From IMG/VR virus record IMGVR_UViG_3300049988_000286, positions 96,001 through 160,000 of that record: 64,000 nt of DNA; one strand, written 5' to 3'. Made by a program: the position numbers and the translations under genes. Below, piece after piece: positions 2,144 to 62,544 of this stretch. The notes beneath the pieces are model-generated. The model ran no database searches. It was given only the letters and a program-made list of their open reading frames with translations, and had not been told where the DNA came from. Every line of letters starts with the position of its first letter. Within the stretch, counting starts at the first letter, position 1. This stretch comes from a virus. Taxonomy: Duplodnaviria; Caudoviricetes.

Positions 2144-2171
2144 GGGGGAGCGGACGGCCCGCTCCCCCTTT
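2144..2171. terminator. GC-rich hairpin between convergent genes
   Basis: GGGGGAGCGG/CCGCTCCCCC 10-bp stem followed by TTT, between rIIB and cca. Confidence 0.7.
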
Positions 2172-3303
2172 ACACACCAAGCATGTCGGTTTTGCCCAGT
2201 GTGTAATCCGATTCGATCCAGCGGCGGCGCGCATCCTTCATCCAGCGGCCGATCTCGACACCGGTGATGCCGCGCTCGATCAGTTCATTGCCCGAGACCG
2301 GGAAAGCAGGTGCCTCCCACGTCTCGATAAAGCGTCGGGTCAGGTCATCACCCCGCGTGGCGAGCAGCGCCGTGATGATCTCCACCGGGATACCTTCTAC
2401 GATATCGCGCTTCGCATCTCCGATCCCATATGGGGTCAAGAGTTTACCGACGATGAACGCGGCGGTCTTCTGCTCGACTTTGCTCCACTTCCACCGCTGA
2501 CCCAGCGCGAGCACCTCCTCACCACCATAGACAGCCATCAGCGCGGCGGGATTGCGTGAAGTCAGCCGAGCCTTGTCGAGAGCCGAGATGTCACCCTCCG
2601 GTAGACCAATCACGCGGCCCACGCCCGAGATGTGGATGAGTTTCAGCACCCTGTCAGCGTTCGGTCCCGCGATGATCTTCGAAATCTCCGCCCAGACACG
2701 CTCGACGCTGATCTGACGCAGATTGGGAGCCGCACGGGTGATCGCCCGCATCGCATCATAATCATTCAGGGGATCACCGAAGCGACCGTAGAAGCGGAAC
2801 CAGCGCAGCGCGCGAAGGTAATCCTCCGCGAGTCGCTCATCGGCATCGCCGACAAAGCGCACCCGTCCCGCTTCTACATCCGCGACACCACCGTGGGGAT
2901 CGAACATCGTGCCATCGAGCGCCATCGCGATGGCGTTCATGGTCAGGTCACGACGCCGCAGATCGTCACGCAGATCAAGGGTGTACTCGACGGTTGCGTG
3001 CCGACCATCGGTCTCGCGATCGATACGGTAGGTAGTGATCTCGTAGGGGATGCGATCGATCACGACAGTGATGGTGCCGTGGGCGAGCCCCGTCGCAACA
3101 TAGTTGTAGCCATGCTGCTCGTAGAGGGCGATCTGCTGATCCGGCGTCGCCGATGTGGTGAGATCGATGTCCTTGGGCGTGATGCCCAGAATGGAATCAC
3201 GTACGCAACCCCCGACAAGCCAAAGCTCGTATCCGGCTTCGACAAACCGCGCGTGCAGTTCATCAATTTCGGGCGGGAGGTTGAGAATATTGCGGTGGCT
3301 CAT
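2170..3303 (-). CDS. cca: CCA-adding tRNA nucleotidyltransferase / poly(A) polymerase family
   Basis: VGGCVRD, DIDL, EITTYR, DLRRRDLTMNAIA, RFVGDADERLAEDYLRALRWFRF class II NTase motifs. Confidence 0.92.
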   Translation of the reverse strand: MSHRNILNLPPEIDELHARFVEAGYELWLVGGCVRDSILGITPKDIDLTTSATPDQQIALYEQHGYNYVATGLAHGTITVVIDRIPYEITTYRIDRETDGRHATVEYTLDLRDDLRRRDLTMNAIAMALDGTMFDPHGGVADVEAGRVRFVGDADERLAEDYLRALRWFRFYGRFGDPLNDYDAMRAITRAAPNLRQISVERVWAEISKIIAGPNADRVLKLIHISGVGRVIGLPEGDISALDKARLTSRNPAALMAVYGGEEVLALGQRWKWSKVEQKTAAFIVGKLLTPYGIGDAKRDIVEGIPVEIITALLATRGDDLTRRFIETWEAPAFPVSGNELIERGITGVEIGRWMKDARRRWIESDYTLGKTDMLGV

Positions 3304-4599: not shown

Positions 4600-6231
4600 G
4601 TGATGCCATTGGTTGTCATCCCTTCCATGTCAGACCCGGTGTGGGCGAGATCGGGATATCTCGCCCACCCAGTGATGCAAAGATGCCTTGCATCATTTCC
4701 GAACTCTGCTATGTCGATGGTGTCATATCAGGGGTTCGCGATGTACTACGGTATCAAAATCGATTCAACGATCTACGTCACCGCCGCGACCGATCTGGCG
4801 GTCTTCCAAGAGATCGAGATCGATATCACCGATGGTGTGATCCGGGCCGAGCCCTGCGACATGGTGGAGATGTTCACGGAGCCGCTCCTCAAGGACTTCA
4901 CCCTCGCGCCCTTCGTCATCGAGTGCGCCACCGGCACGGTGGCTGATGCGGTCGCGTCGTCGAAAATGATCGCGATTCAATCACCGAGCGAAGCCCGCAA
5001 TACGCAGGACCACATGATGGAACTCGCGCGCCTCAAGGCCGAGTTCGATCAGCCCAAGGATCGCCGCACGCTCGCCGAAATCCATGGCTTCGACGACAAC
5101 GCGGACTGGGACAAACGCTCGGATGCCGAGAAGGAGGCGAGCCGCAAGCAGGACGAGAAGATGCGCGAGGTTCGTGCGGCGGGCGGTCTCACCAGCGGCA
5201 GCTTCGAGAGCACCGATACCGAGAACCTGAAAATCCACGGTGTCTCCACGGTTATCGATGCCGACAAGAACATCGTCTCGGCGTCGGTGAATGCGAGCAA
5301 GAACACCATGTCGCTCTATCGCCTGACCGTCGAGGGCGATGCCGTCGATTTCAACGCGATCTTCGACGACATCGGTCTGCCCGAGAATCGCGTCAAGGAA
5401 CAGGAAGCCAACCACGCGGTGATCAAGCTGCATGATCACCAGATCGAGCGGCTGACCGAGACGCTGGAACGCTTCCGGATGGTCTTCACGATTAACAAGG
5501 TCGGGGAAGGCGAGGAGGAGAGCGACGAGGGTGATCTCATCACCGGTCACGAGAACGTCAATGTCTTCTGGTCGGTTCAGATCGATCACCAGACCGTCTC
5601 CAAGGTGTCGCCGATCCTTCTCGCGGCCGGGCTGGATCAGAACCTCGTGGTGCTGATGCGCAATGCGGGACCGGGCTGCTGGTACGCTTTTCTGCGCGAG
5701 AGCGATGCCAAGGACGCCGCCGGGGCGCTCAAGGACGCCGGGATCGCGTCCGAGATCATTGCCGTCAACCGGCGTGGACAATCGATTTTCTCCGGCACTG
5801 GTGCGGGTGCGCGGATCGTCGATCGCCACGTCGAGGATGTCGTGGAGCCGCGTCCGTGGAACGATCGCGCCCATGAGATCGACGCGATGACCGACGAGCA
5901 GAAGGCGGAGTTGATGAAGGGGGTGAAGACCTCGGAGTTCATCGTCACCGTCGAGAGCACGCCGCGCTACAAGGCGCTGGTGCGCGTCCAGCCGGAAAGC
6001 TATTTCCGCGCGCATGATGCCTTGTGGGAGGCTCCCCTCCATATCGACAAGATGGTGGCGGAGCATGTCCTCAAGCCGATCGAGGGGGCGATCAACGCCT
6101 ATTCGTGCTCGGCTTTCGACGCCCAGTTGCTCAAGGACAATCTGATGCGCTGGGGGTTCATCGACTCGCTGTTGCTCCGGATGCACTTCAACGACCTTGA
6201 GTCGGAGATGAAGGCGGAGTTGTACTCCTGA
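4600..6231 (+). CDS. hypothetical protein (543 aa)
   Basis: Long ORF with strong GC3 codon bias; no recognised motif. Confidence 0.7.
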   Translation: MMPLVVIPSMSDPVWARSGYLAHPVMQRCLASFPNSAMSMVSYQGFAMYYGIKIDSTIYVTAATDLAVFQEIEIDITDGVIRAEPCDMVEMFTEPLLKDFTLAPFVIECATGTVADAVASSKMIAIQSPSEARNTQDHMMELARLKAEFDQPKDRRTLAEIHGFDDNADWDKRSDAEKEASRKQDEKMREVRAAGGLTSGSFESTDTENLKIHGVSTVIDADKNIVSASVNASKNTMSLYRLTVEGDAVDFNAIFDDIGLPENRVKEQEANHAVIKLHDHQIERLTETLERFRMVFTINKVGEGEEESDEGDLITGHENVNVFWSVQIDHQTVSKVSPILLAAGLDQNLVVLMRNAGPGCWYAFLRESDAKDAAGALKDAGIASEIIAVNRRGQSIFSGTGAGARIVDRHVEDVVEPRPWNDRAHEIDAMTDEQKAELMKGVKTSEFIVTVESTPRYKALVRVQPESYFRAHDALWEAPLHIDKMVAEHVLKPIEGAINAYSCSAFDAQLLKDNLMRWGFIDSLLLRMHFNDLESEMKAELYS

Positions 6232-6237
6232 CTTTGT

Positions 6238-6314
6238 GCTCGTGTGGCTGAAATGGGAATGGCTACGGACACTAAATCCGTAAGATGTGGGTTCGATCCC
6301 CACGGCGAGCGCCA
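6238..6314 (+). tRNA. tRNA with CUA (amber) anticodon, atypical A33 and G7:G66 mismatch
   Basis: Cloverleaf: acceptor GCTCGTG/GGCGAGC, anticodon stem ACGGA/TCCGT with loop CACTAAA, T arm GTGGG-TTCGATC-CCCAC, encoded CCA. Confidence 0.8.
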
Positions 6315-6506
6315 ATGAATCAAGCAGAGAGCATAGCAGAGGTGAGAGGCGGTTGGATGATCTACTTCCGACTGCCGATCACCACTACCGAACCATTGAA
6401 CGACTGGCTGGCCGAGAACATCAAGGACGCCTTCGATGTCCGCTACGGCGCTGTCATGTTCAAGTCCAAGGAAGACGCGTCGCTGTGCTACCTGCGATGG
6501 AGGTGA
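6315..6506 (+). CDS. small protein, tandem paralog 1
   Basis: Ends MFKSKEDASLCYLRWR; WLAEN motif. Confidence 0.7.
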   Translation: MNQAESIAEVRGGWMIYFRLPITTTEPLNDWLAENIKDAFDVRYGAVMFKSKEDASLCYLRWR

Positions 6507-6703
6507 GGGCCGATCGCGTTGTAGATTTGAGACCAGCACATGAGGGCTGGTTCGTCTTCTTCTCCGGCCCCTTTTACGAGCAGCGGAATCAGATCATTGG
6601 ATGGTTGTGGGCCAACATCGAGGGGAAGTTTTCAGGCCGCATCCTCGGAGTTTGGTTCGAGAATGAGGACGAGGCGCGTCTTTGCTTTCTACGGTGGGCG
6701 TGA
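6497..6703 (+). CDS. small protein, tandem paralog 2
   Basis: Ends WFENEDEARLCFLRWA. Confidence 0.7.
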   Translation: MEVRADRVVDLRPAHEGWFVFFSGPFYEQRNQIIGWLWANIEGKFSGRILGVWFENEDEARLCFLRWA

Positions 6704-6750
6704 TATCGCGGAACCCACGGAGCAGATGCCGCTCCCCGGTATTCCAGACA

Positions 6751-6948
6751 ATGACCAAGACGCGTGCTACCTCGGTGCACCCCGAGCACGGTAAGTGGGT
6801 GGTGGAATTCGATCGGTGGATGTGGGACGACGATCCCATTCATACATGGTGTCGCACCGGCAGTGTTTATGCGGTCAAGACAATGAGCCGCGCTGTTGTA
6901 TTCGATGATGAGGAGGACGCCCGGATATGCTTTCTCCGATGGGTGTAA
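6751..6948 (+). CDS. small protein, tandem paralog 3
   Basis: Ends VFDDEEDARICFLRWV. Confidence 0.7.
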   Translation: MTKTRATSVHPEHGKWVVEFDRWMWDDDPIHTWCRTGSVYAVKTMSRAVVFDDEEDARICFLRWV

Positions 6949-6962
6949 GGCGCGCCACCTCG

Positions 6963-7148
6963 ATGCTTGAACTCGACGGCTTCTGGCGCGTCTACTTTCC
7001 CTCCTACGCGCTGGGGGGTGGTGAGGCGCGATCAATCACCTTCCGGTGGTGCCGAGATCATGCCCATGGGAAGTTCGTGGTCAAACGCTCGCACATCAGG
7101 TTCACTGTAGAGGAAGATGCGCTACTGTGCTGGCTGGCCTTTCGCTAA
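6963..7148 (+). CDS. small protein, tandem paralog 4
   Basis: Ends RFTVEEDALLCWLAFR. Confidence 0.7.
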   Translation: MLELDGFWRVYFPSYALGGGEARSITFRWCRDHAHGKFVVKRSHIRFTVEEDALLCWLAFR

Positions 7149-7330
7149 ACCGCGCCAAGCACCGCCGTGGGCGCGCTGTCGAGTTTGAAAAAGCGTTCAC
7201 CGTTCACGAACGACGCTTCGTTCAGGATTGGCTCGAAAACAATTCACAGGGGCGGGGCAACGTCCTCACCCGGCGCGTGCTGCTCGATGATGAGAACGAC
7301 GCCGTGGCATTCTTTATCGCGGCGGCGTGA
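7127..7330 (+). CDS. small protein, tandem paralog 5
   Basis: GTG start after GAGGAAG; WLENN ... LLDDENDAVAFFIAAA. Confidence 0.6.
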   Translation: MLAGLSLNRAKHRRGRAVEFEKAFTVHERRFVQDWLENNSQGRGNVLTRRVLLDDENDAVAFFIAAA

Positions 7331-7840
7331 TCAGGCGGCGAGCGCTTCCTCGATCCGAGGGAAGAGCGCCATGTATTCGGTGCAGAACCGCGACCACTCC
7401 GGGGTCATGTCCGACATGGCGAGATGGAGGTTGCGATCGTGGATGAGCCAGCGAATCACCAACACGGGAACAAGCCGTTCGTCCAGCCGCTCTAAAATCT
7501 CGCGGGTGGGTGCCTGAAGGCCTCGGCACAGACGCTCCGATAGCTGGGGCTGTAACTGCCGCGCGTCCTCGGCGGAGATGCTGGTGGGGTATTCCTCAAG
7601 GAGGAATTGCAGCAGGTTGTTGAAGGTAGTCGTCACTGCGGCACGCAGATTGATCGAGGTGCCCAGCGCACCGGCATCGATGCGCGAAAGCGTATCGACC
7701 TTCGACAGAAGGATTTCGGTCCGGTCCATGGCAGCGGCCCCCGTAGCGTTTCGTTTCACTAGCATAAGCCGCCATAACCGACAAGCACCGAAACGGTTGC
7801 ATCGTGTGTGGACATAAATAGCAGGATTTAATTTTGACAC
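7331..7840 (-). CDS. hypothetical protein (true start probably downstream, near 7728)
   Basis: ORF track; helical-looking sequence from MDRTEILL. Confidence 0.55.
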   Translation of the reverse strand: MSKLNPAIYVHTRCNRFGACRLWRLMLVKRNATGAAAMDRTEILLSKVDTLSRIDAGALGTSINLRAAVTTTFNNLLQFLLEEYPTSISAEDARQLQPQLSERLCRGLQAPTREILERLDERLVPVLVIRWLIHDRNLHLAMSDMTPEWSRFCTEYMALFPRIEEALAA

Positions 7841-7863
7841 GAATCGATTCGGGATTCTACAAC
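7815..7863 (+). promoter_or_regulatory. TAAATA box (7815-7820) plus sigma70-like TTGACA-N18-TACAAC upstream of ncRNA candidate
   Basis: Motifs read directly: TTGACA 7834-7839, TACAAC 7858-7863. Confidence 0.5.
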
Positions 7864-7874
7864 AGGACTCATAA

Positions 7875-8376
7875 TACTCATGGCGTTATCGGGAGTCGCC
7901 ACCCCAACAACCCCAATGGACTTTGTAGGTGGCAGAGATGTCGCCGTGTTCCGGGCAGGGAAGCGGAGAGTAGCCGACCGGGAAGTGTTGCCGGGTAACA
8001 AGAGACACTAGAAAGAGGAGAGCCATGTCTTACTGACAACTCTCCGTGTTTGTCCAGTCAAGAACCATGCGGCTGGCAAACAAGCTTCTCCACACGAGAT
8101 AACCGTCGAGACCCGAAAGGGTCTGGGAAGGGCAGTAATGCAGGGTCACGGGCGACCACCTGCTAGGCTATAGACGCCGAAGCTGCTAGCGTGGCCATCA
8201 GAGACTCATAGGAATGATGTGCCTTCCCCCCGCTGGGTAGTTTGTCAGATCGATGATCTGTGCGCGTATTTCGCGAGCAAGCTAGTCAGCGGGGGGATAA
8301 AGTTCATCTCGATCTATAGGAATGATATTCATTTCTGTAAGCCATTATTAGCGAATTATCCCCGATAACGAGTGAG
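7875..8376 (+). ncRNA. candidate large structured non-coding RNA
   Basis: ORF-free ~500 nt; closing helix CGTTATCGGG (7884-7893)/CCCGATAACG (8361-8370); many nested stems; GNRA tetraloops; G-U pairs favour the + strand. Confidence 0.7.
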
Positions 8377-8402
8377 CCCGCGAACGAGTGAAGGGGTAAT
8401 TC

Positions 8403-8426
8403 AGGAGAGTGCCGTGGCACTCTCCT
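8403..8426. other. strong hairpin AGGAGAGTGCC-GT-GGCACTCTCCT
   Basis: 11-bp inverted repeat just 3' of the ncRNA candidate. Confidence 0.6.
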
Positions 8427-8514
8427 CCCAGTCAAGGTCTACAACACCTTGCAGGAACTACGGCAGACTAGACGGCGGATCGTTAATCCGACGCCATATT
8501 GATTTTGGAAGACA

Positions 8515-8904
8515 TCAGATCAGGTCTGCTGCCGTGACATGTATAGGGACGGCGGACGCGATAGAGCCTATAATTTCAAGGCTCGCCTTCCAAGACTTAT
8601 CGCTGTCGGCCCACTCGGCGTGGACCTGTGTCTCACGCTTTCCTAACGCCCGAAAGACCACAGGCTCCTCGATACCGGGCATGTCGGGGATCGGCGAAAG
8701 GATGCGGGCGAGAGGGAGAGCAAAGGTGATATAATCGTCACCGTTGTCTTCGATATTCTCGGCATAATAATCGCTGACTTCTTCTATAGCCCAATAACTG
8801 GTCGGGTTAATGCCATCCCGAAGAATTGCTTCGAGGTTCTGTTTCGGGGTGACATGGTAAAGCACTTGTGACGCGCTCTCCACGAGTTTGATCCAATTTC
8901 GCAT
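8515..8904 (-). CDS. putative ADP-ribosyltransferase-fold protein with N-terminal tag
   Basis: LYHVTPKQNLEAILRDGI start typical of DarT/Tpt1-like ART folds; TAAATA 5 nt upstream; MRNWIKLVE. Confidence 0.55.
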   Translation of the reverse strand: MRNWIKLVESASQVLYHVTPKQNLEAILRDGINPTSYWAIEEVSDYYAENIEDNGDDYITFALPLARILSPIPDMPGIEEPVVFRALGKRETQVHAEWADSDKSWKASLEIIGSIASAVPIHVTAADLI

Positions 8905-8967
8905 CCCCCTATTTAGGGGCGCGCCCCGCCAAACGGTGGGAGATCGAACGAACGCTTGCCGCGACTG

Positions 8968-9813
8968 TCATAGGAGGTGGTAGACCCGATAACCCCACGA
9001 CATCCCCAGCGTGAACATCGTCATATCCTCCCGAGACAGGAGAACCATGTTGCCCTCGATGTGGTATCTCTCCACTCCGAGTTCCTTGAGCAGCTTGGGG
9101 ATTTGATTCTTGAGTACCTGTGCGCCTCGTGCCGACGACGCGAACGCACCCGCGACTGGCGTTGGGATCACTTCAACTACCGCCCGGTAGGGATGGAGGT
9201 CATCGGACTTGATCCGGTTAGCCAATCCCCTGAACGCCGTCATGCGCCGACCCTTCATCTTCGACGGTCCGCTCAATTTCGCCATCAGATCGATGGTGGT
9301 GAGCCATTCCGGATGTGGGGTGATGGTCTCTACGACAGTGCCATCGAGATCGACCACGACGATCCGCACCACCGGCATCGGCCGCTTGGAATACTGGCGA
9401 AAATTGATGCGGATAATGTTCTGCTCCGCGCCAACGAGATTGGTGTGATGCAGCGCTCCATTGAAGTCACGCTCACTCCAGAAGCGCGTTGGTTGGGTCT
9501 CGTTAGTGCCCCACCAGAGCAATCCCTCCTCGTTCTCGACATAGTATTCGTGCGCAACCTCTCCGGCATCGAGCAGAGTGGCGTCGTGCAACTGCGAGGC
9601 ATCGACGAAGAGGTCCGCGTCCTTGAAACGCTTGCGCCGGGCACGCAGCCTTCCTTCCTCACGCCCAATGATCTTGATGCCGATCGTCCCCGATCCACGG
9701 CGAGGATAAGGGAGATGAACTTCGGTCCCGGCTGGCACGACGTGCGTCCCGGATGTCACTGCTGAATTGAGGAGCCAAGTCGAACCCTTGGTGAAACGAC
9801 GAATATCAATCAT
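8968..9813 (-). CDS. hypothetical protein (281 aa)
   Basis: Long ORF; C-terminal LLSREDMTMFTL is a weak match to the small-protein family motif. Confidence 0.65.
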   Translation of the reverse strand: MIDIRRFTKGSTWLLNSAVTSGTHVVPAGTEVHLPYPRRGSGTIGIKIIGREEGRLRARRKRFKDADLFVDASQLHDATLLDAGEVAHEYYVENEEGLLWWGTNETQPTRFWSERDFNGALHHTNLVGAEQNIIRINFRQYSKRPMPVVRIVVVDLDGTVVETITPHPEWLTTIDLMAKLSGPSKMKGRRMTAFRGLANRIKSDDLHPYRAVVEVIPTPVAGAFASSARGAQVLKNQIPKLLKELGVERYHIEGNMVLLSREDMTMFTLGMSWGYRVYHLL

Positions 9814-10072
9814 CAGCGATTTCCAGCTTTACGCGGCGGGCATGAGAGTAGGTGGTGGACAGTCGGAAGATCGCACGGTTGGCCTCAACCTCTTCCTTGG
9901 TCTCGCCGCGATAGATCACCATGTCCATCGAGGCGATTATGGCGACCCGGCACCATATGAGTTCTCGGGGGTGATCTGCGCACAGATTGTGAAAAATGTC
10001 GGCGGTATGGTGGCGATCTTCGTCCAGCATCTCTGTGGCGCGGCTAACCGCTACGGCATAATAATCATCCAT
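9806..10072 (-). CDS. hypothetical protein
   Basis: ORF overlapping both neighbours in an operon-like array. Confidence 0.6.
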   Translation of the reverse strand: MDDYYAVAVSRATEMLDEDRHHTADIFHNLCADHPRELIWCRVAIIASMDMVIYRGETKEEVEANRAIFRLSTTYSHARRVKLEIADD

Positions 10073-10334
10073 AGGCGATACTGGCTTCGCTCACGGCGGT
10101 ATATTGGTTCGCGAGACGGAACATGGTGCGGAGGTATTCGTGTTCCTCGGTCGGGGAACCGTAGGCTACCAATGTTTTGTCACTGCTGGATGAGAGTTGA
10201 CAGATCAAGCATGCATGGGTGCGGTCAATCACGACTAGGTTGTCGAAGAGATCGAACGAGCAAACCTCCGACAGTAGTTGGGCGGGATGCTTGAACGATA
10301 ACCCGATGACGACGGTGGAGACAGGGTTAGTCAT
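10065..10334 (-). CDS. hypothetical protein
   Basis: ATG 10334 after GGAGA, immediately downstream of the tRNA. Confidence 0.6.
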   Translation of the reverse strand: MTNPVSTVVIGLSFKHPAQLLSEVCSFDLFDNLVVIDRTHACLICQLSSSSDKTLVAYGSPTEEHEYLRTMFRLANQYTAVSEASIAYG

Positions 10335-10350
10335 GTCGTCTCCAAAAGGG

Positions 10351-10425
10351 TGGTGGGAATACTCGGATTCGAACCGAGGACACACGGTTTTAGGGACCGC
10401 TGTTCTACCGCTGAACTATACTCCC
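10351..10425 (-). tRNA. tRNA with CUA (amber) anticodon, atypical C33
   Basis: GGGAGTA-TA-GTTC-AGCGGTA-GAAC-A-GCGGT-CCCTAAA-ACCGT-GTGTC-CTCGG-TTCGAAT-CCGAG-TATTCCC-A-CCA; clean cloverleaf. Confidence 0.9.
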
Positions 10426-10434
10426 GATGTTGCC

Positions 10435-10463
10435 GAACTATCGCAAGAGATTCGGTTGGTCAA
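10435..10463 (-). promoter_or_regulatory. sigma70-like promoter of the tRNA (TTGACC-N17-TAGTTC)
   Basis: -10 element ends 10 nt upstream of the tRNA 5' end. Confidence 0.55.
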
Positions 10464-10486
10464 GAGATTTCTCGACATAGTTCGAC

Positions 10487-10515
10487 TTGACCGAGAAAGC
10501 GATCTCGACTATCCT
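10487..10515 (+). promoter_or_regulatory. sigma70-like promoter (TTGACC-N17-TATCCT), divergent from the tRNA promoter
   Basis: Exact 17-nt spacing; ATG 10523 follows 7 nt later. Confidence 0.55.
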
Positions 10516-10522
10516 GACAAAC

Positions 10523-11005
10523 ATGGAAATCGAAACTCCCTCTTACTGGGTCGCGGTTGGCGCGCACGGTGCGCAGCCCTACGCTGATGGCACGCACGTC
10601 GATGTCCATCTGCGGGCAGTGGTGGAGATACTCGTCAGCTTCAACTTCTGCGCACAGTTCTGGATCGACGCTGGGTGGCTCCACGACACCGATGAGGATA
10701 CCGCCTTCAAGGTAGCGCAGACCCGTCTGCGTTTCGGCGACATGACGGCCGACCTCGTATGGGCGGTCACGGGCGTGGGCGACAATCGTCGCGAGCGCAA
10801 TGCATCCATCTACGAGAAGATCGCCGCCTTTCCGCGCGCCGCCATTCTCAAGACCGCCGACCGGATCGCCAACCTGCGGTCCTCGAAGGTCCACGCACCG
10901 TCGCTGTTCCGCATGTACCAGAAGGAGGCCTCGACCTTCGTCCCGGCGGTGCGCGATCACATCCCAGAGGAGATGCTTGCGGCCTTGATGGAAGCCCATC
11001 AGTGA
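10523..11005 (+). CDS. HD-domain hydrolase, RelA/SpoT (Mesh1-like small alarmone hydrolase) type
   Basis: AH.AQ, HLRAV, AGWLHDTDEDT, ILKTADRIANLR. Confidence 0.8.
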   Translation: MEIETPSYWVAVGAHGAQPYADGTHVDVHLRAVVEILVSFNFCAQFWIDAGWLHDTDEDTAFKVAQTRLRFGDMTADLVWAVTGVGDNRRERNASIYEKIAAFPRAAILKTADRIANLRSSKVHAPSLFRMYQKEASTFVPAVRDHIPEEMLAALMEAHQ

Positions 11006-12759: not shown

Positions 12760-13152
12760 GATTGATTTCCTCGTAGTTGTTGATTGACGAAAGAGATGAT
12801 CAACGGATCATCGGTCAGGGACTTGATTTTCTCCAAAGCTTTTCGCCAGCTTTCTGCACGGTGCCAAAGCTCAAAGCCCGTGCGCTGCAACTGTGTTATC
12901 CGGTCATTGCTGCTCTCCATTATCGCCACCGAAGTTCAAACAAGGTGAAGTCGTGATCTCGCAGGTAAATCGCCTTGTCATTCTTACAGGCAAACTCCAC
13001 CCCGTTCGCCAAACACCATTCAAGGTATTCGGCGAAGCTGTGCTTCGACCATGGTTCTTTACGAGTCGCGATCTCGTGGAAGGTGCCCCAGAGATCGACG
13101 AGATAGCCTTTCGTCCGAAAGTGGACGGTCTAACGGCCGGGTAGGATCAACT

Positions 13153-13569
13153 TCATAATTCGAGTCCTCCAAATCTGATCTTGAACAAGATGATATCCAT
13201 CTCCTGTTCCATCATGATCCCCTGTGAGTAAGAGCAGCCGCCCTCGCTCCAGTTGACGCGACGGAACTCACCGATGGCATTCTCGGCGAGCCATTCATCG
13301 ATGGCGAGATAGGCGGGATAGCCGCACATGATGCGGATGAGCGCCCAACCCGTGGGCGTCTGCATTTTCATCTTACGGAGACAGGGTTTGTCTTCGTAGA
13401 GTTTTTCGTCTTCGGCGAAGAAGGCATCGTGGCCTCCCTCGTTTGAGGTAAGCATGATGTTCTCCAAACGCGAAAAAGCCACCACGGCCCGATCGCTCGG
13501 AACCATGATGGCTTTATTGATATACGGAATAGTCGCCGAGATCGCGGGAGCGATCTGCGCAATCGACAC
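13153..13569 (-). CDS. hypothetical protein, small-protein family domain
   Basis: EWLAENAIGEF...MEQEMDIILFKIRF. Confidence 0.6.
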   Translation of the reverse strand: MSIAQIAPAISATIPYINKAIMVPSDRAVVAFSRLENIMLTSNEGGHDAFFAEDEKLYEDKPCLRKMKMQTPTGWALIRIMCGYPAYLAIDEWLAENAIGEFRRVNWSEGGCSYSQGIMMEQEMDIILFKIRFGGLEL

Positions 13570-13679
13570 GTTGCCCGCCGTGCGGGTCAGGGTCTGGATC
13601 GAGGGGGCGAGCTACGTCATGGGTTGTTTATGAGGCCTTGTTCGGGTTTCGTCAATAGAAAAGTTCGCTGATGATGAAT

Positions 13680-60430: not shown

Positions 60431-60768
60431 GATATCGAATTCGCTGCTTCGTTGGAGACGGCAATAGAGAAGGCATCCGAGTAGGCGTGACGGACACGCT
60501 TCTCATCGGCGGGATCGTAGAAGGTCGCGCTCAAATCATCCCAGCCCGCCCTACCGCACAGTCGGCGAAGTCGGAACAACTGTCGCGCAACCTTGATCGA
60601 CCCCGCTTCGAACGGTTTGATCGCCCGCAGGAAATAGGGCGTTTGGAGAGTCAGGGTATGGCGATCCCACCCCAGATTCGGCATGTTGGCGAAGATGAAG
60701 TCGAGGGCTTCGCGGCCGATCTCGACTTCATCCCCGCTACGCTTCAGGCTAAACTTGGCTACCTTCAT
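60427..60768 (-). CDS. hypothetical protein
   Basis: ATG 60768 after GAGGGA, overlapping the LysRS 3' end. Confidence 0.55.
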   Translation of the reverse strand: MKVAKFSLKRSGDEVEIGREALDFIFANMPNLGWDRHTLTLQTPYFLRAIKPFEAGSIKVARQLFRLRRLCGRAGWDDLSATFYDPADEKRVRHAYSDAFSIAVSNEAANSIS

Positions 60769-62476
60769 TGGCGATCCCTCGCAATAGATCAACTGTTTCT
60801 CTGATACCATACATGGCGGTGAAGGCACCGAAGCGCGGCCCCGACTCCTGACCCAAGACAGTCTCGTAGAGGGTCCGGAACCAATCACGCAAGCGTTCCT
60901 TGCCGAAATGTGCCTTCCCGACTTCGTAGACCTCGAACTGGATCATCTCCTCACCGGATCGTACACCCACCGCCCACTCGGGCAAGGGTTCAGCCAACAA
61001 CTGGAGGAACCGCGTGCCATCGGGATTAGCGCGATGCGCATAGGTGACATCCCCGAGAGACATACCATCAAGACGATCGGCGAGATCAAGCATCGCCACA
61101 CCTTCCTCCGGCGTGGGCAAGCGACGCGCCAGCTTCCCGGCGAGGAAATCCTCGTAATAGTTGAACGCGTGATCGATCAACCAACCGAGTTCCTCCTCCA
61201 AGGCATCGCTCATCACCGGAGTAACCCGCGACGCATAGGAGTGGAGACGCGCCTTACTGTCCACCGCCGCCGTCTGGGCGATGTTGAGCAGAAGCTGATA
61301 CGAGACCGGGAGACTTCCTTCGGGAACACCGGCGTGGACGTGGTGGACCGCATTGCCGAGACGCTGCTCCGAGGTCTGTTCCGCGTAGCGGCGACGCGCG
61401 TCGCGATAGTCCTCCTCCGCCTGAACGACGACGGCGGGATAGAGCTTCTTCGCCCGCTGCGGCTCACGGTAGAGGTAGGCGGCAAGGCTATCCTGCGAGC
61501 CGTAGCGGAGCCACTGCTCCATGGTGAGCCCATTGCCCTTCGACTTGCTGATCTTGCCGCCGTGCTCGTCGAGGAACATCTCGTAGATCATCGTCACCGG
61601 CGGGCGTCCCCCGATCGCACGGACGATCTTCGACGATAGCGTGACGCTATCGGTCAAGTCCTTGCCCGCCATCTCGTAATCGACGCCAAGGGCGAGCCAC
61701 CGCATCGCCCAGTCAGCCTTCCACTGACACTTCACGTTGCCGTTGCGAATGTCCCACATAACATCGCCAAGGCGATCGATGCCCCATTCAACGATCCGGA
61801 ACCGCCCGTCGTCCCGCACTGTCTTATACCAAGGCCCGCGACCGTAACTGACATCGATCACGCCAACATAGTTGGGGTTTGAGGTCACGCCCTCATTGAC
61901 GACATGGCCATCCTCCATGATGGGCATGAACGGCGAATAGGTGGCGCGACGCTCCTCCCCCAGCGTGGGAGCGATGATGCCGCGAACCTTGTCGTACTGG
62001 GCGTCGATGGCAAGCAGGGCGTCGTTGAAGCGGCCGGAGTTGTAGGTCTCCGTCGCAGACATGAACTCGTAGTCGAACCCGAAGCGATCGAGAAAGTCGC
62101 ACAGCATCGCGTTGTTGGCGTGAGCGAAACTCTGGTGGCGACCGCTGGGATCAGGGACGCGGGTGAGCGAGTATCCGAGCCACGGCGCGAGTGAGGCTTG
62201 TGCCTCCTCGGACAGATTTGTCGGGACACTCCGTAGAGCGTCCATGTCGTCGCTGAAGACGATCAGGCGCGTGCCGGCGTTGCGCGAGAAACCCATGAGG
62301 TCTTCGTAGGCACGGCGAACCATCGTGGTGCGCGCCACTTCGGCGAAGGTGCCGATGTGAGGCTGCCCCGATGGTCCATACCCGCACTCGAATACTACGT
62401 CGCGACCCGTGATGCCCCGCTGGGCGATCTTGCGGGCCTCAACGTACGGCCATGCCTTGCTCGACTGATAATCCAT
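60749..62476 (-). CDS. lysS: class I lysyl-tRNA synthetase
   Basis: AWPY.EA, CGYGPSGQPHIGT (HIGH-like), KCQWKADWAMRW, GKDL, KISKSKGN (KMSKS), GPRFG. Confidence 0.95.
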   Translation of the reverse strand: MDYQSSKAWPYVEARKIAQRGITGRDVVFECGYGPSGQPHIGTFAEVARTTMVRRAYEDLMGFSRNAGTRLIVFSDDMDALRSVPTNLSEEAQASLAPWLGYSLTRVPDPSGRHQSFAHANNAMLCDFLDRFGFDYEFMSATETYNSGRFNDALLAIDAQYDKVRGIIAPTLGEERRATYSPFMPIMEDGHVVNEGVTSNPNYVGVIDVSYGRGPWYKTVRDDGRFRIVEWGIDRLGDVMWDIRNGNVKCQWKADWAMRWLALGVDYEMAGKDLTDSVTLSSKIVRAIGGRPPVTMIYEMFLDEHGGKISKSKGNGLTMEQWLRYGSQDSLAAYLYREPQRAKKLYPAVVVQAEEDYRDARRRYAEQTSEQRLGNAVHHVHAGVPEGSLPVSYQLLLNIAQTAAVDSKARLHSYASRVTPVMSDALEEELGWLIDHAFNYYEDFLAGKLARRLPTPEEGVAMLDLADRLDGMSLGDVTYAHRANPDGTRFLQLLAEPLPEWAVGVRSGEEMIQFEVYEVGKAHFGKERLRDWFRTLYETVLGQESGPRFGAFTAMYGIRETVDLLRGIANEGSQV

Positions 62477-62544
62477 TAATGACTTCCCCAATCGACCTTG
62501 GCCTTCAAGTTCGGTATGCCACGACGCGGAGGGTATGGCAAGCG

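Follow-up and report, generated by a model that had tools for sequence, protein, structure and literature searches.

Two CUA tRNAs lacking U33 and a small gene with an early in-frame TAG in a standard-code T4-like phage: a possible amber read-through module

Why would a phage that ends its genes with the ordinary stop codons carry a tRNA for the amber codon, and why would that tRNA lack the uridine at position 33? The question is raised by a stretch of viral DNA of 64,000 nucleotides (hereafter the window; all coordinates refer to it unless marked as genome), which corresponds to bases 96001-160000 of a single virus record of 499,572 bp with 57% G+C. U33 is near-universal in tRNAs and makes the U-turn of the anticodon loop. 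The first-pass annotation of the window had described a tRNA with anticodon CUA and A33, had likened its anticodon arm to that of tRNA-Pyl, and had proposed either conditional amber readthrough or a non-decoding decoy.

The tRNA in question (hereafter tRNA no. 1) is located at 6238-6314 on the plus strand. The check with a tRNA caller was positive: ARAGORN calls a tRNA of 77 nt there, with the anticodon CTA at 6272-6274, which reads UAG. The Rfam model RF00005 gave a score of 39.2 bits, the gathering score being 29, with one non-standard pair in the acceptor stem. Direct reading of the sequence gave the anticodon arm (T)ACGGA-CACTAAA-TCCGT(A), in which the stem ACGGA/TCCGT could be lengthened by a U26-A44 pair and the loop of the RNA is CACUAAA. 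The acceptor stem has a G7:G66 mismatch beside a U6:G67 wobble and is followed by G73 and an encoded CCA. The arm, the CUA anticodon, A33, G7:G66, G73 and the CCA had all been described before, and all were borne out by this reading. The rest of the body is normal, with a D loop of 9 nt that contains GGG and includes G18G19, the T loop TTCGATC, a variable loop of 5 nt and two bases (U8 and G9) between the acceptor and D stems. Among the features of a canonical elongator tRNA, U33 is absent from tRNA no. 1, the base at 6271 being A. The tRNA gene directly follows a conserved ORF of 543 aa with no assigned function (4600-6231, plus strand), the stop codon of which lies 7 nt before it and which served as the synteny anchor for tRNA no. 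1.

The resemblance to tRNA-Pyl was found to be confined to the loop. Like tRNA-Pyl, tRNA no. 1 has the anticodon CUA and G73, and the loop CUCUAAA is found in the relatives of this phage. tRNA-Pyl, however, has a compact core: its variable loop has 3 nt, its small D loop lacks G18G19, the T-Psi-C sequence is missing, and a single base separates the acceptor stem from the D stem. The D, T and variable loops are canonical in the present case, and the spacer has two bases. In addition, the PylS profile TIGR02367 (PylS_Cterm) had no match at E <= 1 in the 499,572-bp phage genome. The presence of G18G19, the TTCGA T loop, the 5-nt variable loop and the two-base spacer, together with the lack of PylS, led us to reject an identity with tRNA-Pyl; the body of the tRNA is canonical, and what is common to all orthologs is the loop CUCUAAA.

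The genome is that of a very large T4-like phage with the standard code. It carries an rIIB-like gene, a T4-type Gp23 capsid gene, 41 tRNA genes and a tmRNA; no gene with an RF-1 domain was found in it. The density of greedily chosen ORFs in code 11 is 0.89, and the stop codons over the whole genome are TGA (346), TAA (215) and TAG (118), so that TAG terminates 17-18% of the ORFs, or about 120 phage genes. Genome-wide, the gain from ignoring TAG stops is no greater than that from ignoring TAA stops, and the Gp23 capsid gene has no internal stop. The earlier statement that the locus does not reflect simple genome-wide recoding therefore held, on the ORF density, the share of TAG among the gene ends and the uninterrupted capsid gene. 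The share of TAG among stops is 5-14% in the loci of the relatives, a figure that comes from few genes, as against 18% here.

The window contains a second tRNA with the anticodon CUA. This tRNA no. 2, at 10351-10425 on the minus strand, was found by ARAGORN and by Rfam (64.8 bits). It has the loop CCCUAAA, with C33 at 10394 and the anticodon at 10391-10393, as well as GGG/CCC-A73, U35 and an encoded CCA. Promoter-like hexamers, TTGACC-N17-TAGTTC (10435-10463, minus strand), end 9 nt before it; they were seen by eye and fall below a consensus promoter scan, and are thus weak evidence. A gene of the HD_4 type (RelA/SpoT-type HD; 10487-11005, plus strand) is divergent from tRNA no. 2 and served as the second synteny anchor. 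A gene of the CCA-adding enzyme / poly(A) polymerase family (2170-3303, minus strand) belongs to the same neighbourhood in all relatives, and is thus kept near the suppressors although both tRNAs encode their CCA.

Among the 41 tRNAs that ARAGORN finds in the phage genome, U33 is present in 38. The three exceptions are tRNA no. 1 (A33), tRNA no. 2 (C33) and one tRNA-Cys(GCA) (C33); all three tRNA-Lys genes of the phage retain U33. Against the 41 tRNAs of the phage itself, the CUA tRNAs show a uniform similarity of 0.67-0.71, which points to no particular amino-acid identity. The tRNA-Cys(GCA) with C33 lies outside the window, at genome 52186-52262 (L029:2186-2262), has the loop CCGCAAG and an anticodon stem of 6 bp, and directly precedes a second tRNA-Cys(GCA) with U33 and a long variable arm. 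Homologs of the gene that adjoins it were found in the relatives, with no tRNA-Cys beside them.

Relatives of the region were found through the 543-aa ORF, the homologs of which (about 40% identity) lie on metagenomic contigs, and through homologs of the HD_4 protein. They are genome fragments of 18-130 kb, and their common neighbourhood comprises rIIB, the CCA-adding-enzyme-family gene, an AAA_33 kinase gene, a gene of about 500 aa, small genes and the HD_4 gene. Both CUA tRNAs are present, in the same plus/minus arrangement, in the loci L002 and L003. Both are also present in L021, where the copy of tRNA no. 1 was detected by Rfam only. L020 has tRNA no. 2 and stops short of the position of tRNA no. 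1, and L004 has neither tRNA. The orthologs used were those of L002, L003/L006/L013 and L021 for tRNA no. 1, and those of L002, L003, L020 and L021-23 for tRNA no. 2. Other searches added little: single-protein and exact-pattern searches of IMG/VR gave no relatives of the neighbour genes or of either tRNA, and a search of IMG/VR and metagenomes with a D-arm pattern returned mostly chance matches in coding sequence, the only tRNAs being those of L002, L003, L006 and L013. The GenBank phages gave no DNA or protein relatives of the region.

The folds of both tRNAs are maintained across these lineages. In the tRNA no. 1 family, 95% of the cells are paired and 8 pairs are changed on both sides in the three other lineages, a result that none of 500 shuffles reaches. 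In the tRNA no. 2 family, 99% of the cells are paired and 15 of the 21 pairs show compensatory changes, again with 0 of 500 shuffles. Since its orthologs in three other lineages keep the fold and no shuffle matches it, tRNA no. 1 is a genuine cloverleaf tRNA and not a chance fold. Both CUA tRNAs are real and conserved, with compensatory changes in their stems. All orthologs, in both families, have the anticodon loop CUCUAAA. The Rfam score of tRNA no. 1 (39 bits) is the lowest of its family, the others scoring 45-53, and that of tRNA no. 2 (64.8 bits) compares with 60-68 in its orthologs.

Two copies in the relatives have unusual bodies. The ortholog of tRNA no. 1 at L021:6152-6228 lacks GG in its D loop, and its T loop reads GGCAGTT instead of GTTCGAT; it retains CUCUAAA, G73 and CCA, and has an Rfam score of 45 bits and no ARAGORN call. 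On the NCBI contig SECT01002067.1, the site of tRNA no. 2 (L028:250-330) holds a tRNA-like gene without a normal D arm, which is not called by ARAGORN and has kept CUCUAAA and the ACCA end. The HD_4 protein beside it falls into the same 90%-identity cluster as that of the window.

What, then, might the two tRNAs read? A comparison of TAG-read-through ORFs between the window and its relatives gave a candidate at 12920-13156 on the minus strand (hereafter the gated gene), which consists of an ATG, seven sense codons, a TAG as codon 9 (13130-13132, minus strand), 69 sense codons and a TAA. Its ATG overlaps the TGA of an upstream paralog as ATGA. The paralog (13153-13569, minus strand; C-terminus ...LFKIRFGGLEL) belongs to the same small-protein family and is translationally coupled to the gated gene. 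Orthologs with the same layout are found in L002, L003, L020 and L021/22/23, and each of the five lineages has the TAG as codon 9 or codon 10. The list of code-11 ORFs has no entry at 12920-13156 on the minus strand of the window, and the code-11 gene calls in the relatives omit the gated gene or start it late (at an internal ATG in L002).

Both sides of the TAG have the signature of coding sequence. In the 17 codons after the TAG, the differences among the four relatives number 9, 8 and 52 at the first, second and third codon positions, respectively. Before the TAG nearly all differences are at the third position, and they include a synonymous switch of arginine codons, CGC/AGA. The first in-frame start after the TAG comes at codon 49 in the window and at codons 48-80 in L003, L020 and L021. 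Such a signature on both sides, with the next start so late, argues that translation starts at the ATG and passes the UAG. On these codon patterns, the gated gene is translated on both sides of the TAG.

The gated gene also travels with the tRNAs. It is located 2.5-3.5 kb from tRNA no. 2 in every lineage, and both tRNAs lie no more than about 7 kb away from it; L004, which has no CUA tRNAs, has no homolog of the gated gene in the 21 kb examined. The copy in the window retains the TAG, the 69 open codons and the family motifs. Judging from this conservation, the phage apparently retains the tRNA pair for the translation of one small gene with a UAG near its start. Conditional amber readthrough, as proposed at first, thereby has a specific candidate client in this conserved gene, whose TAG at codon 9 or 10 the tRNAs would decode. 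The predicted protein is a member of an expanded family of small phage proteins. It had no significant match in Pfam or PHROG and no relatives among the GenBank phages. AlphaFold predicted a small alpha/beta fold, with a pLDDT of 87 in one of five models and 50-60 in the rest, and the model had no convincing match in the PDB or the ESM Atlas.

The gated gene seems to be alone in this genome. Three genome-wide scans (500 kb, with TAA and TGA as controls) revealed no other convincing TAG-interrupted or TAG-gated gene, and no gene in the genome has at least 50 coding codons on both sides of a TAG. The proposed genome-wide search for TAG-split genes and pylS thus added no second gated gene and no PylS. 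The other TAG-split candidates were rejected as adjacent genes in the same frame with starts of their own, or as non-coding or antisense frames. A PTH2-like gene was considered as a gated partner and rejected: its sole match (genome 391966-392289, minus strand) has no TAG and is not adjacent.

Another rejected candidate is an ATG-NNN-TAG ahead of the upstream paralog (genome 109614), where the next 54 codons differ at 14, 20 and 22 sites by codon position, without third-position bias, as in an untranslated leader. The head of this small-gene operon in the window (13570-13620, minus strand) reads TTGACG-N17-CATAAACA, then ATG ACG TAG, and its counterpart in L020 reads TTGACC-N15-ACTAAATA, then ATG CAT TAG. 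The stretch of about 160 nt from the mini-ORF to the ATG of the first gene is conserved between L002 and L020 with no coding bias (14/20/22); by this pattern it is a conserved 5' leader.

A TAG that is conserved ahead of a T5orf172-like gene was likewise set aside as part of a promoter/start motif, L004 having TAA TAG at this place. The motif, (C/T)TGACTAAATAG(T/G)GGGTG, ends in the GTG start of the T5orf172/GIY-YIG-like gene, and reads CCAACTAAATAATAGGTG in L004. It occurs at about genome 94250-94275, just before the window, and at about 3150-3170 in L002, 1425-1445 in L003 and 2485-2505 in L004. From its sequence it looks like the -10 element of a phage promoter, lying so close to the start codon that the mRNA would be nearly leaderless.

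The loss of U33 was then placed in time by comparing strains. Contigs of four runs (X1-X4) were compared over 5800-10700, of which X2-X4 cover parts only. Two other metagenomes, runs X2 and X4, gave contigs 98-99% identical to the window over 360-400 nt, and both of these near-identical strains have T at 6271, as do the orthologs. Since U is found at 6271 in near-identical strains and in all orthologs, the sequence comparison indicates that A33 is recent, derived and specific to this strain. By the same kind of comparison, C33 of tRNA no. 2 is a derived state, all four other lineages having U there. In one near-identical strain the 31:39 pair is inverted by two compensating changes, 6269 A>T and 6277 T>A. 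By this compensated change between close strains, tRNA no. 1 is under purifying selection at the strain level.

The two tRNAs were also compared with their families column by column. The copy in the window is altered at 8 of 47 invariant ortholog columns in tRNA no. 1 and at 5 of 36 in tRNA no. 2, and position 33 is among the altered columns in both. If sites were hit at random, the joint chance of hitting position 33 in both would be about 0.02, and this chance drops when compensated stem pairs are excluded. As U33 is ordinarily under the strongest constraint of all sites, the chance should be smaller again. Further changes in tRNA no. 1 are C66>G, which breaks the 7:66 pair, and C6>U. The loss of U33 probably weakens both tRNAs. 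Bare and co-workers reportedly found in 1983 that U33 is not essential for amber suppression. In yeast tRNA-Gln(CUG), both U33C and U33A gave the phenotype expected of poor decoding (PMC3664417).

We propose the following explanation. Two dedicated amber suppressors of a clade of standard-code giant T4-like phages would read the UAG of the gated gene, so that suppressor activity would determine whether, and in what amount, the protein of about 80 residues is made; conservation and coding signatures point in this direction. In the present strain, U33 has been replaced by A in tRNA no. 1 and by C in tRNA no. 2, with the cloverleaf bodies, the CUA anticodons and the gated gene kept. Published U33 substitutions lead one to expect that such tRNAs still recognise the same codon and are still charged, but decode less well on the ribosome. 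Both changes could then be a selected turning-down of amber suppression, not a new mode of decoding. There would be less read-through at the about 120 phage genes that end in TAG, where read-through is a possible cost, and less of the gated protein. Two hits are needed to lower suppression and one would silence the gated gene, which suggests that selection acted on suppression itself.

Taken as a whole, a two-tRNA, one-gene amber read-through module with tRNAs weakened in parallel in this strain has, in our judgement, slightly less than an even chance of being correct. That the module is a private one-codon switch, in which two suppressors gate one gene and strains tune or shield it by parallel mutation of U33, is a tentative reading that we consider more probably wrong than right. 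If it is true, U33 would be a natural tuning site for suppressor strength. Two points count against tuning. The broken 7:66 pair, the U6:G67 wobble and the lowest Rfam score of tRNA no. 1 fit decay equally, and odd anticodon loops elsewhere in the genome (C33 in tRNA-Cys, U37 in tRNA-Pro and G37 in tRNA-Ile) point to a general pressure on loops, for example from nucleases.

The second of these points leads to another interpretation, in which an anticodon nuclease recognises or cuts CUCUAAA, and replacement of U33 protects two suppressors that are still needed and still working, at a cost in decoding. We know of no nuclease that targets suppressor tRNAs, and no such nuclease was identified here. 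The two tRNAs would nevertheless offer one shared loop, altered at the same site in both, and this loop, CUCUAAA, differs from that of tRNA-Lys(CUU) only at position 36. Strains differ at position 33, as in an arms race, and several further anticodon loops of this phage are non-canonical. Phage tRNAs with loops altered so as to resist anticodon nucleases have been described (van den Berg et al. 2023, PMC10264068, a paper that mentions neither U33 nor position 33), and the tRNA-Lys of T5 acts against PARIS (PMC11464382). Like the nuclease-evading phage tRNAs, those of the window combine a non-canonical anticodon loop with a conserved body; those tRNAs, however, are sense tRNAs that replace host tRNAs cut by a known nuclease, and the suppressors have no host counterpart. 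Changes at position 33 do alter cleavage by gamma-toxin, but A33 and C33 were not protective against this one nuclease for which there are data (PMC2275089). Moreover, the three tRNA-Lys genes of the phage keep U33, and the sole candidate client of the suppressors is one small gene, so that a need for protection is a supposition. Escape from a nuclease is a doubtful explanation.

The broken acceptor stem raises the alternative that suppression became unneeded or harmful, and that both tRNAs are early pseudogenes inactivated at U33, with a gated gene that is now silent and will decay. The very recent origin of A33, the two additional destabilising acceptor-stem changes and lowest family score of tRNA no. 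1, the degenerate copies in relatives (tRNA no. 2 of L028 without a D arm and tRNA no. 1 of L021 with an aberrant T loop) and the absence of the tRNAs and the gene from L004 are all as expected from such a loss. Yet the same site in two unrelated tRNA bodies would rarely be hit at random (about 0.02), tRNA no. 2 otherwise equals its orthologs in score, and the gated gene shows no sign of decay in its TAG, its 69 open codons or its family motifs. Furthermore, published U33 substitutions weaken suppressors and are not known to abolish them. We consider this loss of the whole module unlikely.

The non-decoding decoy of the first-pass annotation would have a tRNA body kept for a role off the ribosome, such as soaking up a tRNA-binding defence protein or enzyme, with the loss of U33 removing unwanted decoding. 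A conserved body with an altered decoding loop, and the conserved gene for a CCA-adding enzyme nearby, would suit this role, but all relatives keep the optimal suppressor loop and a conserved client with an in-frame TAG, which argues for decoding as the function of the family, and there is no pointer to a binding partner. This makes a decoy very improbable. An artefact of sequencing or assembly at 6271 and 10394 is scarcely credible: the two assemblies are probably from the same sample, but the separate Logan contigs of the likely source run match the window over 5800-10700 at a depth of 51-54 (54 at 6271) with no other letter listed, contigs being unable to show minor alleles at 6271 or 10394, and it is very unlikely that two genes would both be misread at the homologous position.

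The preferred reading, a read-through module with two weakened suppressors, has partial parallels in known systems. Phages that have recoded TAG ('code 15'; crAss-like, Lak and others) encode Sup-CUA tRNAs (Borges et al., bioRxiv 10.1101/2021.08.26.457843). As in those phages, a CUA tRNA is encoded by a very large phage with a standard-code host, and the suppression in code 15 phages is thought to control the expression of particular genes, which resembles the present case. Unlike them, the present genome shows no recoding, either genome-wide or of late genes; TAG serves as a normal stop codon, and none occurs in frame within the capsid gene. Instead, there are one conserved gene with an in-frame TAG and two unrelated suppressor bodies, with U33 lost in the strain. 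The G+C content is 57%, whereas that of recoded phages is typically low.

A closer parallel for position 33 itself is the tRNA-Ser(CAG) of Candida. With G33 this tRNA decodes with medium instead of high efficiency, and the base is believed to have made the code change less toxic (PMC1991585); G33 in the tRNA-Ser(CAG) of the CTG clade is attributed to Santos et al. 1996 in a passage of PMC3664417. In both cases a tRNA that changes the meaning of a codon has a base other than U at position 33. The Candida case, however, is the reassignment of a sense codon in eukaryotes, extends over a whole clade and involves G33, whereas the present tRNAs are phage stop suppressors with A or C, and the change is specific to one strain and affects two tRNAs at once.

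Phage suppressor tRNAs and code-changing tRNAs without U33 are thus both known kinds. The literature that we searched describes phage suppressors in recoded genomes only. As far as we have searched, two findings are new: that phages of a clade with the standard code keep a pair of suppressors for just one gated gene, and that both suppressors have lost U33 in parallel at the strain level. Phage suppressor tRNAs are known mainly for wholesale recoding of stop codons, and here they seemingly serve one gated gene. If the change does tune or protect suppression, it would illustrate, from nature, how a code-altering tRNA can come to be tolerated, and the U33, A33 and C33 alleles would be ready-made for testing the role of U33 in bacterial stop decoding. 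For annotators it would also be a warning that a short 'gap' close to a CUA tRNA may contain an amber-gated gene overlooked by standard callers.

Several minor observations were made in the course of this analysis. The window contains an ORF of 580 aa at 60749-62491 on the minus strand. A PTH2-domain protein of 192 aa with a hydrophobic N-terminal segment is encoded at L001:1489-2067 on the minus strand (genome about 391954-392532), about 500 nt downstream of a 95-nt tRNA-Ile(UAU) on the same strand. Other tRNA genes of the phage, all located outside the window, have unusual bases in the anticodon loop, namely U37 in Pro(CGG) (genome 351359-351435), G37 in Ile(GAU) (genome 403157-403232), A32 in Arg(CCU) (genome 39124-39199) and G32 in Leu(CAG) (genome 61857-61932). 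For a further tRNA outside the window, at genome 402970-403045 on the minus strand, ARAGORN gives the four-base anticodon 'tcca'. From an alignment to E. coli tRNA-Trp it looks like a tRNA-Trp(CCA), with A1-U72 and G73; on the same alignment, C31:C39 and C27:U43 mismatches open its anticodon stem.
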